Shown here: positions 21,496-58,290 of the stretch, in pieces | How the letters are laid out: each line of letters begins with the position of its first letter | Position numbering within the stretch: the stretch's first letter is position 1 | Origin: Eledone cirrhosa | Lineage: Eukaryota | Direction of reading: 5' to 3' | DNA: 64,000 bases | NCBI GenBank assembly: GCA_964016885.1 | Contig: OZ024753.1 | Span: forward strand, 32,116,001 to 32,180,000 | Program-made: the position numbers and the translations under genes | Notes under the pieces: generated by a model | Databases searched by the model: none | What the model was told of the DNA's origin: nothing | What the model saw: only the letters and a program-made list of their open reading frames with translations

Positions 21496-21662
21496 AGGAA
21501 AAGGTTCAGGACCCCGACGGTAGAGCTCAAGCTGTTTCGACGGCTATTTCTTCTACGTCGAAATGGATTGAACCTTTTCCTATTACCCACTCTACTACCC
21601 AAAGTATCGAGTACTCTGGTACGTTATGGTCCACCTGGTTCCTTACCACACTTCCTTCGTTT
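21496..21662 (+). mobile_element. PLE family A, short copy
   Basis: About 55-bp inverted arm, about 15-bp sense arm, then family A tail TACCCACTCTACTACCC...ATGGTCCACCTGGTTCCTTACCAC...CTTCGTT; (TA)n on both sides. Confidence 0.85.
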
Positions 21663-21677
21663 TATATATATATATAT

Positions 21678-22093
21678 ATATACGATATTAACAAATGGAA
21701 ACTATATTTATAAAACCATATCTATTTTATTATACATATTTCAAGGATACCATGTTAAATTATGGTATGCCTTCATCAGACAAAATACAATATATACCAG
21801 TTTTATAAATAAATATTGACATACCCTTTCAAAATGCAACCGTTACTTTTGGAAGACAACAGGGATCAATATTTATTTATAAAACTGGTATATATTGTAT
21901 TTTGTCTGATGAAAGCATACCATAATTTAACATGGTATCCTTGAAATATGTATAATAAAATAGATATGGTTTTATAAATATAGTTTCCATTTGTTAATAT
22001 CGTATATTTACTCCAAATACTTGTCGAGTGCTTTATATCAGTTATAAAAATATTTGCTTGTTGTATCCCAACAATTTAAATAGAACTTTTGCA
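21678..22093 (+). mobile_element. PLE hairpin insertion, family C copy 2: arms 21678-21819 and 21866-22007, tail to 22093
   Basis: 142-bp inverted repeat with one mismatch seen; CTGATGA at 21906 and GAAA at 21943 with stem II ATACCA/TGGTAT. Confidence 0.87.
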
Positions 22094-22114
22094 TATATAT
22101 ATATATATATATAT

Positions 22115-22540
22115 ATATATTAATAAGAGGAATTCCAACTTTGTCTGATTTACTCGTTTTATTTACAATCCTTTAAAATATATAATGGTATTATAATGAA
22201 ATAGTATGATAGAATATTAAATTCTAAGTGTTAATTGAACAAGTACTTTCATGCTTTCGCAATCTTCAGGTTCATAATATGTGGTGACAGTCGAGTTTGC
22301 AATTTTCAACTGTGGAAAATTGCAAACTCGACTGTCACCACATATTATGAACCTGAAGATTGCGAAAGCATGAAAGTACTTGTTCAATTAACACTTAGAA
22401 TTTAATATTCTATCATACTATTTCATTATAATACCATTATATATTTTAAAGGATTGTAAATAAAACGAGTAAATCAGACAAAGTTGGAATTCCTCTTATT
22501 AATATAATCTTCTATACACAATCATACACACCCGTGTATA
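22115..22540 (+). mobile_element. PLE hairpin insertion, family D: arms 22115-22307 and 22315-22508, short tail
   Basis: About 193-bp palindrome with a 7-nt loop and no mismatch seen, next to (TA)n. Confidence 0.87.
22348..22386 (+). ncRNA. Minimal type I hammerhead ribozyme motif
   Basis: TGAAC CTGAAGA t TGC-GAAA-GCA t GAAA GTAC TT GTTCA: 5-bp stem I, GNRA-capped stem II, palindromic stem III loop. Confidence 0.88.
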
Positions 22541-22596
22541 TTTACCTATTATATCTATATCTATCTATCTATCTATATATATATATATATATATAT

Positions 22597-22931
22597 TAAT
22601 GTATTATGAGTAATGTTACGTTACTGTTGGTTTACCAGTCTGAGTAGTCAATGCTGATATATGGATCTGTTATCGGTATCAATAAGAATCAGGGTGTTAG
22701 TAATAAGGAACAGGAACAAAGTATCAATATAACATCAATATATTTACTCACACGCGGGACGCGTTTCGCAATCCACCGACTCAAGGTACGATCGGTACAG
22801 ATCGGGCCCGACTCTGGACTCGATAGCTGACCAGACTTGTGGAAGAACATCAAAGCTAGATCTGCCTGTGGAATACTGAATCACTTCACTCGCATATTCA
22901 GTGAAAACGTAGTAGTTGATCTCACGACTGG
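22597..22931 (-). mobile_element. Probable PLE terminal repeat plus tail, hammerhead-like with long stem II
   Basis: Minus strand CTGAATA (variant core, 22895-22901) then about 125 nt, then GAAA CGCG TC (22758-22767); tail has CATTGACTACT; abuts (TA)n. Confidence 0.55.
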
Positions 22932-23023
22932 ATATACATACAAATGCATACAAACATATAATACACATACACACTCATATGTATGTGTGCATATATATAT
23001 ATATATATATATACACACACACA

Positions 23024-23233
23024 CAGAGTGGCTCCAAGTCACACGGGGGTCGCATGGCCGCTATTTGAAAGATGTAATTTGTCATAAGTAATGTAGAGGT
23101 GTAACAAGGTTCGACGAGTGCAAAATAATTTCCATTATATCCTTTAAGTTGTATCAAAATTCCATACATCAATCCGTACAATTCAGGAAGTTAACAAAAG
23201 CTAAAACCCCTGTGTAACTATTGGACCACTCTG
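23024..23233. mobile_element. Tc1/mariner-like MITE
   Basis: Imperfect ~27-bp TIRs CAGAGTGG...ACAC.GGGGT / ACCCCTGTGT...CCACTCTG followed by TA. Confidence 0.6.
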
Positions 23234-55310: not shown

Positions 55311-55710
55311 TATTGTTTCTACTTTTGTCACAAGGCCAGCAATTATCCCAGTGTATTACTAGTACTTTATTTTATCTACCCCGTAAGGATGAAAGGCAAA
55401 GTTAACCGCGGCAGGATTTGAACTCAGACCGAAAAGGGACATAACCCTATGCTGCAAAGCATGGCGTCCGATACTGCCAATCCACTGCCAATAACATCTT
55501 AATAATGGTGTCTGATTTAGGCACAAGGTCAACAACTTCGGAGCAAGGGAAAGTCCATTAAATCGACCCCTGTGCAATACTGGTACTTTATATTATCCAT
55601 CCTGTAAGAACGAAATGCAAAACGAACATCGGTGGGATTTGATCTCAGAATGTAATGTGCCGTAACTATATTGTTGGCCGATGCCAACCCACTGCCAACC
55701 CACCGCCCTT
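55311..55710 (-). mobile_element. Two adjacent SINE family 1 copies (young 55311-55488, older 55500-55710)
   Basis: Two reverse-complement consensus matches in tandem. Confidence 0.82.
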
Positions 55711-56571
55711 GATTATCTTAATTTAAAAAAAAAGACAGACAAAATTAGAGTTTTAAAATTATTAAAAAATGTTGTTGTTGTCCCTAGGTCACACTTTCGA
55801 TATGGACCTTGTATTAAAGGACCGGGGTGGCTCTACTGATCCCCGTACATATGTATAAACTCACCCACAGAGAACAGAAGACATAAACACACATGTCAAA
55901 CACAAATACACACACGCGGAAATGTATCATAGAAAGACAAGATCGAGTATACAAAATAAGCTAAGAAAAAAGCGGAGGCAAAGGGGAAAACAGAGTTATT
56001 GAGGTCTCAATGTGTGACGAAAGAACTTTGACGACGGTTAATTAATACCTAATAAAAAAAATTGAAGTGAAAATTAAATAATTTTTTTATTGGCATATAT
56101 ACATATATATATTGTATATGTACATATAAACATACATATATATGACTGTGTATGTATGTATATTGATGCGTGCATATATGTGAATGTAGTACTAATATCT
56201 TTTATATATCCTCAAGGGTTTAATTAGCTTTTTATCTGGGAATCATTTTGTTTGTGTTAATCATCCTCTCAAGTTTGCTAATATACAGTTTCAAACGGTG
56301 TGAATCAAGCAGAGAAATATATATGACATCAAACGCAAATAGTACCAAACAGATATCTAATTACCACACATGATCACACCCCCAAACATTATATATATAT
56401 ATATATATATATATATATATATATATATATATATATATGTGTGTGAAGATAGACATAGAATATTCGAAACTATTCTGTATGTTTATAATAAACATTTTGA
56501 AGACCTAATCGCTATAGAATAGAATACGTCACGTATTACAATTAATCCAATATATATATATATATATATAT

Positions 56572-56677
56572 GAAAATATATGACCCCGACGGCAGAGCTG
56601 AAGCCGTTTCGACGGCTATTTCGAGTACTCTGGTGCGTTATGGTCCATCTGGTTCCTTACCACAACTCCTTCGTTTT
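56572..56677 (+). mobile_element. PLE family A, minimal copy with no sense arm
   Basis: Inverted arm ending GACGGCTATTTC joined directly to GAGTACTCTGGTGCG of the tail. Confidence 0.83.
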
Positions 56678-56882
56678 ATATATATATATATGCACTCATG
56701 CTCTCTCTCACACATATGTTTATATATATAAATATATAGATGCAATAAGGCTGAATGGTTAAGAAGAGTTCGCTTACCAATCTTTAGGTTTGGGGATCGG
56801 TTCCACGGTATGGCATCTTGTAAATATATATATATATATATATATATATAAATATATATATATATATATATATATATATAAA

Positions 56883-57326
56883 TATAAAGAATCAAAAAGA
56901 ACAGAAAGATGCAGTAAAAGAGATTTATTCGGTTCTAACGTACGTTTCAATAGACATCAATTTGCCTAGATCTCGCTGCATTTATAATATTATATAGTTA
57001 GTATATAGAAATATAATCTCTGATGATATGGAATCGATTACGCATTGGATGTCGAATGCTCTACTAACTATAAAATATGATAGATGCAGCGAGATCTAGG
57101 CAAATTGATGTCTATTGAAACGTACGTTAGAACCGAATAAATCTCTTCTACTGCATCTTTCTGTTCTTTTTGATTCTTTATACACGCCCCGGAGTGTAGC
57201 TAAACTGGAATATACACCTATTTTCTGCATTTCGTTGAGCACCACTCTGTTGTAAGCTGACCTTCCCCTACACGGTACATAACACAGTGTCCTGGAAAAC
57301 CTTAATGCACTCGTGCATAACCAATT
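56883..57326 (+). mobile_element. PLE hairpin insertion, family P: arms 56883-56980 and 57084-57182, tail to about 57326
   Basis: 98-bp inverted repeat; hammerhead TCT CTGATGA (57020), about 90 nt, GAAA CGTACG TT AGA (57117-57131); (TA)n flanks. Confidence 0.83.
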
Positions 57327-57384
57327 ATATATAAATATATATATATATAAATACATATATATATATATATAAATATATATATAA

Positions 57385-58075
57385 ATATATTTTTTTAAGT
57401 CGTTTGGAAGCCTCGACAATGCAGATGGGTAAATCTCCGGGTAACAGGATCCGGTGGTAGTGAGAGAGATGTAAGTGGGTGTACGTTGAGATGCGTGGCG
57501 TGTATAAGACGTGTAGAGGAATGAAGGAGAGAGCGTAAAGGATAAAAATAAAAATAACAACACGAGAGAGAGTTACCTTGGGAGAGATTTAATTGTCCCT
57601 ATATATTTCGGATTCACATCCATCAACTGGGGGTATTTTCCGGGGTGGGGGAAAGGTTGTCTGTCGGAAAGGTGCGAAACGTGTCCTCCGCTGTTCGTTG
57701 TTTTGAACATTGATATTCAAAATAACGAACAGCGGTGGACACGTTTCGCACCTTTCTGACAGACAACCTTTCCCCCCACCCCGGAAAATACCCCCAGTTG
57801 ATGGATGTGAATCCGAAATATATAGGGACAATTAAATCTCTCTCAAGGTAACTCTCTCTCGTGTTGTTATTTTTATCCTTTACGCTCTATCCTTCATTCC
57901 TCTACACGTCTTATACACGCCACGCATCTCAACGTACACCCACTTACATCTCTCTCTCTACCACCGGATCCTGTTACCCGGAGATTTACCCATTTGCATT
58001 GTCGAGGCTTCCAAACGACTTAAAGATATTTACTTATTGTTCCACAATGCTTCAAGCAAACTTCAATACTCTCTT
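57385..58075 (+). mobile_element. PLE-type hairpin insertion, family Q: arms about 57385-57708 and 57716-58030, short tail
   Basis: About 320-bp inverted repeat with about 8 differences; variant hammerhead CCC CAGTTGAT GGAT-gtga-ATCC GAAA TATA TA GGG; (TA)n flanks. Confidence 0.8.
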
Positions 58076-58121
58076 ATATAAATATATATATATAAATATA
58101 TATATATAATAAATATATATA

Positions 58122-58290
58122 TATAGGAACAAGTAAGACCCCGACGGCTGAGCTCAGAATTAGCCGTCGAAACGGCTTGAGCTCAGCCGTCGGGGTCTTA
58201 CTTGTTCCTATTACCCACTCTACTACCCTAAGTATTGAGTACTTTGGTGCGTTATGGTCCACCTGGTTCCTTACCACATTTCTTTCGTTA
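58122..58290 (+). mobile_element. PLE family A, short hairpin copy
   Basis: About 35-bp inverted arm; sense part starts GAATTAGCCGTCGAAAC; near-identical to 41838-41970. Confidence 0.88.

Follow-up and report, generated by a model that had tools for sequence, protein, structure and literature searches.

Copies of a Penelope-like element share an endpoint zone inside loop II of its predicted hammerhead ribozyme

In a 64,000-nucleotide stretch of the Eledone cirrhosa genome (assembly GCA_964016885.1, contig OZ024753.1, positions 32,116,001 to 32,180,000 of the forward strand; hereafter, the window), copies of a repeat that we call family A share an inner endpoint, which is not a single position but a zone 10-15 bases wide (41828-41842, + strand). 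Judged by its sequence, family A corresponds to the 3' end of a Penelope-like element, comprising an endonuclease remnant, a predicted type I hammerhead ribozyme and a tail; the zone covers the 3' part of loop II and the apex of stem II of this ribozyme, and both the ends of copies in the window and joints in public sequence data fall into it. We tentatively favour, at a little short of even chances, the explanation that this zone marks an RNA 5' end, likely the transcription start of an internal promoter, at which the reverse transcriptase (RT) runs off its template. The Penelope-like element type, the inverted structure of the copies and the tail are already known.

Results

Copies of family A end at the apical side of stem II

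All positions on the element are coordinates on the long copy at 39966-41970, with its sense arm (40441-41970, + strand) as reference. In this copy, the predicted hammerhead spans 41782-41877 (+ strand), with stem I at 41782-86/41873-77, the core CTGAGAA at 41787-93, stem II at 41794-41805/41838-49, a 32-base loop II at 41806-37, GAAA at 41850-53, stem III at 41853-71 and the predicted cut after C41872. The 3' arm of stem II has G41838 as its apical base.

Three short insertions carry inverted arms whose exact extension against the long copy ends at 41837, 41838 and 41838, and these arms (21493-21551, 38350-38404 and 56568-56622) share the terminal sequence TTTCGACGGCTATTTC. The insertion at 21493-21661 continues with about 17 bases of filler and a sense arm from ~21569 (equivalent to 41878), while those at 38350-38492 and 56568-56675 continue with sense arms from 38403 (41877) and 56621 (41916-18), each overlapping its partner by two bases (TC), so that the true end of the inverted arm may lie anywhere between 41838 and 41840. 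In the insertion at 58123-58289, which belongs to the long copy's subfamily, the inverted arm (58123-58156) ends at 41859 and it is the sense arm (58155-58289) that starts in the zone, at 41836 (41836-41838 with its 2-base overlap). A profile search of the window with nhmmer gave 16 hits and added two diverged sense copies on the + strand: one at 17086-17138 (E 2.4e-5), which starts at ~41841 beside (GA)n and ends at the 41892 site, and a strongly diverged one at 42046-42180 (E 2.2e-12), whose similarity begins, with some uncertainty, at ~41820-41828; a weak hit at 29570 (E 0.06) was dropped. Altogether, inner ends lie within 41836-41842 in 5 of the 10 arms that cross the cleavage site, and the remaining five end at 41859, ~41824, ~41815, 41425 and beyond 40442.

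An earlier note on this DNA had described the inverted arms at 21496, 38352 and 56572 as stopping at the same point, at the top of stem II, before joining different sequences, with a sense part at 58157 starting at the equivalent position. The shared end, its location at the apical base of stem II and the 58157 start all hold; the point itself broadens into the zone given above, and the joined sequences do differ, except that at 38352 and 56572 the partner is the element's own sense arm. The note's further claim that the arm at 20622 loses similarity nearby does not stand: this arm (20619-20690, − strand) runs ~22 bases further, to 20690, in a subfamily with a different loop II, of which it matches 19 of 20 bases (loose-end consensus in reads). 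It is a counter-example to the shared end, and, by its sequence, the similarity loss seen earlier is partly loop II divergence between subfamilies. Both copies of this other loop II subfamily adjoin (GA)n at their inner ends (20690-20730 and 17056-17085), in opposite orientations. The short inserts at 19306 and 26292, which the note had described as also ending inside the ribozyme, gave no nhmmer hit and, not being family A, are other hammerhead-bearing inserts that lack the core and whose junctions cannot be placed.

A single, already truncated master was considered as the source of the short copies and excluded. The four young clustered copies have four different private variants just after the cut site, common to both arms of an insertion where both cover the site, and their junctions differ; three of the clustered copies share subfamily letters, and the 58155 copy belongs to the long copy's subfamily. 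With all evidence combined, the zone is used by inverted as well as sense arms, on at least four templates and in three subfamilies, showing that it reflects a property of the RNA or of the enzyme rather than of one master.

As the earlier note had also stated, the templates of the clustered copies were uncut, since these copies span the predicted cleavage site. Two further sense copies, which it had overlooked, lack an inverted arm and start at that very site: one at 39499-39597 (+ strand; start 41872/41873) and a diverged one at 27266-27354 (+ strand; start 41873). Both of the young arm-less tail copies (2/2) thus start at 41872/41873, from which some templates were likely self-cleaved. Their ends, within one base of the cut, also suggest that RNA 5' ends leave sharp copy ends in family A. 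These two copies are a possible genomic trace of self-cleavage in vivo.

The junction filler at 21552-21568 holds CGTCGAAA, the reverse complement of bases 13 upstream in the same arm, and is possibly a fold-back templated insertion.

The cluster in the window and in public sequence data

We estimated how often such a cluster would arise by chance, placing ambiguous ends at their midpoints and using estimated ends for the arms at 20622 and 42046. For all 10 arms under one geometric length model, five ends in a 5-base window had P = 2.5e-5, and for the 8 short arms alone P = 0.013-0.028, rising to 0.047-0.081 with a 7-base window; the earlier note's own set (4 of 8 arms) gave P = 0.034-0.060 under the short-arm nulls. 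Taken from the window alone, the clustering is therefore suggestive but short of decisive.

Public data were then compared with 41600-41970 at 80% likeness, using four of the 21 runs listed: contigs of runs X1 and X5 and restriction-site-associated DNA (RAD) reads of runs X19 and X20. In X1, which comes from organism A and possibly from the very sample of the window, contig depth rose 13-fold across the zone, from 167,168 at 41827 to 2,184,571 at 41841; the stem III bin had 40 times the depth of the loop II bin and 16 times that of the bin upstream of stem I, and in X5 (56 records, from organism B, which is not the organism of X1) it had 12 times that of the loop II bin, all these ratios being rough because contig depth is inflated at graph branches. 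Of 27 joints in total, 15 were listed, and 13 of these change strand; 11 of the 13 start at 41832-41842, with their other sides scattered over 41886-41931, and among those listed the opposite-strand joints with X1 contigs all lie at 41832-41842 (7/7). Under uniform nulls, this cluster had P up to 5e-5 for the listed joints. The depth step in the RAD runs, together with a peak at 41839 (7,233 molecules), was rejected as evidence, being an artefact of cutting at AATT: RAD molecule ends fall on AATT sites at 41703, 41778, 41781 and 41839, and those at 41823 and 41828, which may reflect AATT sites created by variants, were left unused.

These data bear on the possibility that the zone is an effect of alignment and sampling, in which loop II divergence, short arms and common TC overlaps produce a cluster by chance. 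Such an effect is demonstrated for one subfamily, that of the 20622 arm, whose loose ends lie at 41842 (agreement 0.68-0.73 in the RAD runs); moreover, three of the clustered copies share subfamily letters, nulls for short arms gave P of only 0.01-0.13 and the RAD peak at 41839 is an enzyme site. At 38352, 56572 and 58155, however, the arm joins its partner directly, leaving no room for another loop. Depth counted without the subfamily's A at 41841 still falls 8.5-fold by 41827, so that part of the depth step remains beyond subfamily divergence, and depth upstream of stem I stays 16-fold under the stem III plateau. We consider it improbable that the cluster is such an effect.

Reads and joints also speak to splicing. 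If the zone was a 3' splice site (AG at 41832-33 or 41837-38), the copies would come from a spliced RNA with a short first exon. YAG does occur at 41831-33 and 41836-38, ends at 41832 and 41837 would suit exons with a terminal AG, the 21496 filler has AAG at its end when read backwards, and Penelope-like elements have introns beside the ribozyme (PMC4209133). Yet the copies share no upstream exon and three of the four junctions have no extra bases, the loose ends differ among themselves at 41828 and 41839 (agreement 0.34-0.44), and among the joints listed no skip joint ends in the zone, which makes a splice site very improbable.

The zone is where the predicted fold is easiest to open

The earlier note had attributed the shared end to the folded ribozyme acting as an RT stop or a processing site. 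In a wider form, the explanation by an RT stop holds that RT stops on, or is released from, a full-length RNA at a structure or a bound protein, or that the stem II 5' arm, freed when the 3' arm has been copied, pairs again and displaces the cDNA end. Four ends do lie no more than 2 bases from the apex of stem II; displacement would be possible, as the sequence of the freed 5' arm is almost that of the cDNA end; and in three of the four other hammerhead inserts the inverted arm is without the core. Since RT travels from the tail toward the RNA 5' end, it would reach 41838 only after copying stem I, stem III and the stem II 3' arm, and we calculated the predicted cost of unfolding the next 5 bases ahead of it, for the long copy and for secondary structure only. 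This cost was 6.5 kcal/mol at the stem I base (41877-41878), 4.4 kcal/mol at 41858-41860 and 2.5 kcal/mol at 41848-41849, and it was only 0.1-1.6 kcal/mol at 41828-41845, the lowest value in the ribozyme. Ends at 41877, 41878 and 41859 match these barriers, as a stop would predict, although 41877 and 41878 also fit blocking by the second primer.

The zone itself does not behave in this way. Helices are expected to make RT pause at their 3' base, joints reach 41832, six bases into the loop, and both arms of the long insertion read through the ribozyme. An RT stop is thus poorly supported and we hold it unlikely; if true, it would be a stop at an unexpected position.

Proposed run-off at an RNA 5' end in loop II

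The explanation that we favour, with the reserve stated at the outset, is that RT runs off at an RNA 5' end that is most likely the transcription start of an internal promoter. In this scheme, RT would begin inside the RNA at two sites in the tail (41892 and ~41970), move toward the RNA 5' end and run off where an RNA starting in loop II ends. Each of the two target strands in (AT)n would prime one arm, and the arms would be joined by overlaps of 0-2 bases, their ends being trimmed and blurred by a few bases in the process. An RNA that begins in loop II would carry neither the 5' strands of stems I and II nor the first core box; without half of the ribozyme it could not self-cleave in cis, and its copies would therefore span 41872 uncut. 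Longer read-through RNAs would carry the whole ribozyme and give long copies such as 39966-41970 when uncut, and copies starting at 41873 (39499 and 27266) when cut.

Related elements offer precedents for several of these steps. The protein of PAc, a Poseidon element of Anolis, begins reverse transcription at two positions within the RNA, and these delimit the tail (Frangieh et al. 2024, PMC11167929); when the 5' end of its template is shortened the product is shortened too, and uncut RNA is its main substrate. A TATA-less internal promoter lies in the pseudo-long terminal repeat (pseudo-LTR) of the D. virilis Penelope (Schostak et al. 2008, PMC2377424; review PMC6765202).

Around the zone, we found two initiator-like matches, namely the only match to TCAKTY in 41425-41970 at 41826 (41826-31; A at 41828) and a match to YYANWYY at 41830 (41830-36; A at 41832), a motif that occurs at 1.1% of positions, and the best match to a motif ten element (MTE), 9 of 12 bases at 41845, 17 bases downstream of A41828. 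These are motifs of Drosophila or mammalian promoters, with an expected MTE spacing of +18; having been sought after the fact, they count as a weak lead only. A tRNA-type promoter, looked for by eye in the loop II of the other subfamily, was rejected, as no second box lies at a suitable distance.

The same copies could come from an RNA whose 5' end is made after transcription, by an endonuclease cutting in loop II or by 5'-to-3' decay halted at the edge of a bound protein, with RT again running off. The processing site named in the earlier note would be one way to make such an end. Trimming of this kind accounts for all that run-off at a transcription start accounts for, loop II provides the fold's long unpaired stretch, and the 10-15 base spread suits it. 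The PAc protein binds around its RT start sites (PMC11167929), and the region proposed to be bound here would reach from the stem II 3' arm to the tail. On the other side, once the stem II 5' arm is gone, no structure that could stall decay would be expected just 3' of the zone, and no candidate nuclease or motif emerged. We give trimming about the same low probability as an RT stop.

Several points weigh against a transcription start in loop II, and some against the zone as such. The P value for the joints rises to as much as 0.01-0.22 if all 12 unlisted joints fell outside the zone, and each joint may hide up to 40 unaligned bases. Copies with the different loop II have loose ends at 41842, so the depth step is partly subfamily divergence, and the sequence upstream of stem I has 2.5 times the depth of loop II. 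The promoter motif matches are weak, no good downstream promoter element was seen by eye near +28 to +33, and the in-window ends at 41836-41841 lie 4-13 bases downstream of A41828 or A41832. One of the four other hammerhead-bearing inserts, that at 19690, crosses the whole ribozyme. Finally, in the D. virilis Penelope the start lies upstream of an intron and hence of the whole ribozyme (PMC2377424, PMC4209133).

If the zone is an RNA start nonetheless, it would account for the prevalence of tiny inverted pairs among the insertions and for the production of both cleavable and non-cleavable RNAs by a single element. A bolder idea, which we regard as rather doubtful, is that the promoter fires inside its own hammerhead and that start-site choice acts as a switch between the two kinds of RNA. 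RNAs with half a ribozyme, started in loop II and unable to self-cleave, would then yield, through internally primed RT, very many SINE-like (short interspersed nuclear element-like) copies of ~140 bases, some of which might be re-transcribed from the same internal promoter, while read-through RNAs with the whole ribozyme would be cut or give long copies. The genomic copy ends would in that case record both RNA 5' ends in the manner of a fossil map, the one made by in vivo cleavage included.

Family A is very likely a Hydra-clade element

In the long insertion, the inverted arm (39966-40440, − strand) is equivalent to 41425-41892, crosses the whole ribozyme and is 95.8% identical to the sense arm over 475 columns; the sense arm holds an endonuclease C-terminus, a 3' untranslated region, the hammerhead and the tail, and the whole is flanked by (AT)n runs. 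Such an arrangement, an inverted arm followed by a sense arm, has the geometry of twin priming, known from L1. The two long arms differ by 12 substitutions, none after 41721, and by two indels before 41722, and they are identical over the last 170 bases, a pattern that may stem from the use of two templates or from conversion at the inverted repeat's outer end. Their correlated read-through was left unused as evidence, the 12 differing sites possibly pointing to two RNAs.

A 72-codon remnant (40442-40657, + strand) with the sequence pattern CNLC..E..LNN..CKY resembles the C-terminal region of a GIY-YIG endonuclease and matches 82 proteins (best E 2.8e-11). Two of 16 scanned relatives matched Pfam GIY-YIG, both just under the cut-off; P0070, to which the remnant is 40% identical, had E 1.8e-4, just under the cut-off. 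A Pfam scan of the remnant itself and a word-based protein search found no match, and an Atlas look-up gave weak leads only. The Hydra clade is defined by CxxC and CxH motifs around a conserved E and N (Craig et al. 2021, PMC8557442), and the remnant has such a GIY-YIG C-terminus, with Y in place of H in the long copy. Elements of the clade also have a CxCX5C linker, no CCHH motif and a telomerase-like RT with RWK and DKT motifs. The CxCX5C linker is present in two of five relatives inspected (P0047 and P0070); that region lies outside the part of the element found in the window, as does the RT part. Insertion into (TA)n and a hammerhead near the 3' end, followed by a tail and accompanied by an inverted 5'-truncated partner, are likewise features of the clade; family A shows them, and on the traits seen here it very likely belongs to the clade.

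The tail (41886-41970, + strand) would lie between two RT start sites: outer ends fall at 41892 in inverted arms and at ~41970 in sense arms, and loose read ends pass into (AT)n behind 41892 and 41959. Most family A copies adjoin (AT)n at their outer ends. The tail pattern had no match (0) in metagenome and viral contigs.

The modelled hammerhead fold (-21.0 kcal/mol) is not the minimum-energy fold (-26.9 kcal/mol), and Rfam gave nothing at gathering scores, with only three chance matches on 41740-41970. The stems, GAAA and UC are present; the core has C3.A8 in both long arms, and C41787>T, which gives a U3-A8 core, is found in 53% of X1 depth, 56% of X5 depth and 17% of RAD reads. The long insertion may thus have been copied from an RNA with a weakened ribozyme. 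The ribozyme pattern matched 25 metagenome loci, which we dismissed as chance, since 25/25 matched only around the pattern and 0 had an (AT)4 run.

Other repeats in the window

At least five hammerhead-bearing families lie within these 64 kb. Three more Penelope-like inserts sit in (AT)n with a palindromic stem III, at 19690-19960, 19303-19449 and 26290-26480; the first has a complete hammerhead on the minus strand, and the other two (19306 and 26292) have GAAA and the palindromic stem III on the minus strand without the core. A further hammerhead family at 56880-57180 has the core CTGATGA and a loop II of ~70 bases; its sense arm carries the whole ribozyme, and its inverted arm ends inside loop II at TACTAAC, which we take to be branch-point-like.

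The window is AT-rich, with many microsatellites and no long genes, and has the look of an animal genome, perhaps a cephalopod-like one. Another abundant repeat, SINE-like, ~190 bases long and with apparent target-site duplications, occurs at 8898-9053, 18585-18895, 25451-25702, 44845-45031, 46271-46467, 50173-50364, 53118-53311 and 55301-55489, and a partial copy (41224-41276) lies inside the 3' region of the long family A copy. At 15491-16060, a 189-codon open frame beside an inverted repeat shared with 21685-22086 presumably resembles the C-terminal end of the reverse transcriptase of an RTE-type long interspersed nuclear element. A 152-codon cysteine-containing open stretch at 5465-5923 may be a host-gene exon.

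Discussion

Comparison with known systems

A literature search, with subscription papers and figure-only supplements mostly outside its scope, found no Penelope hammerhead for which an endpoint zone in loop II had been described. Within the Hydra clade, including Hydra-1_Obim, the hammerheads listed have a CUGANGA core and 3-10 bases in loop II (Craig et al. 2021, PMC8557442), whereas in family A the core is U3-A8 or C3.A8, loop II has 32 bases, stem III is longer and the tail is ~80 bases long; this tail had no match in that paper's supplement. The terminus shared by Hydra-1_Obim copies is the 5' end of long copies and not a point in the ribozyme (PMC8557442).

In Schistosoma, the Cercyon hammerhead (Cervera and De la Pena 2014, PMC4209133) resembles that of family A in having U3-A8 for C3-G8, a long stem II and a palindromic loop III. 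Family A differs from it by a stem III of 5-6 base pairs, a long loop II and, in the long copy, the mismatched C3.A8. Non-LTR retrozymes (Li et al. 2026, bioRxiv 10.64898/2026.07.22.740005) are, like the short copies here, short non-coding derivatives of Penelope pseudo-LTRs that need the element's enzymes, but they form tandem units with complete ribozymes, whereas family A copies are dispersed and inverted and hold only the 3' half. We rejected family A as a non-LTR retrozyme, its copies being dispersed and the short ones lacking the core.

Like the D. virilis Penelope (PMC2377424), family A would have its internal TATA-less promoter within the pseudo-LTR, on the 5' side of the tail repeat. 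In D. virilis transcription starts upstream of an intron and the whole ribozyme, in contrast to the start proposed here, inside loop II, which would split the ribozyme. Likeness to PAc (PMC11167929) extends to two internal RT starts bounding the tail, extension of both target strands, AT-rich targets and uncut RNA as the main template. PAc belongs to another clade, however, its open reading frame starts in stem II and no reads began or ended at the cut site; the text of that paper describes no hotspot of inner ends.

The role of hammerheads in Penelope-like elements has been called "still unclear" (Craig 2021, PMC8557442), and the PAc hammerhead was not needed in vitro, with no RNA ends reported at the cut (Frangieh 2024, PMC11167929). 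Family A offers two marks that can be counted in a genome: copies starting at the predicted cut and a dominant class of copies ending in loop II.

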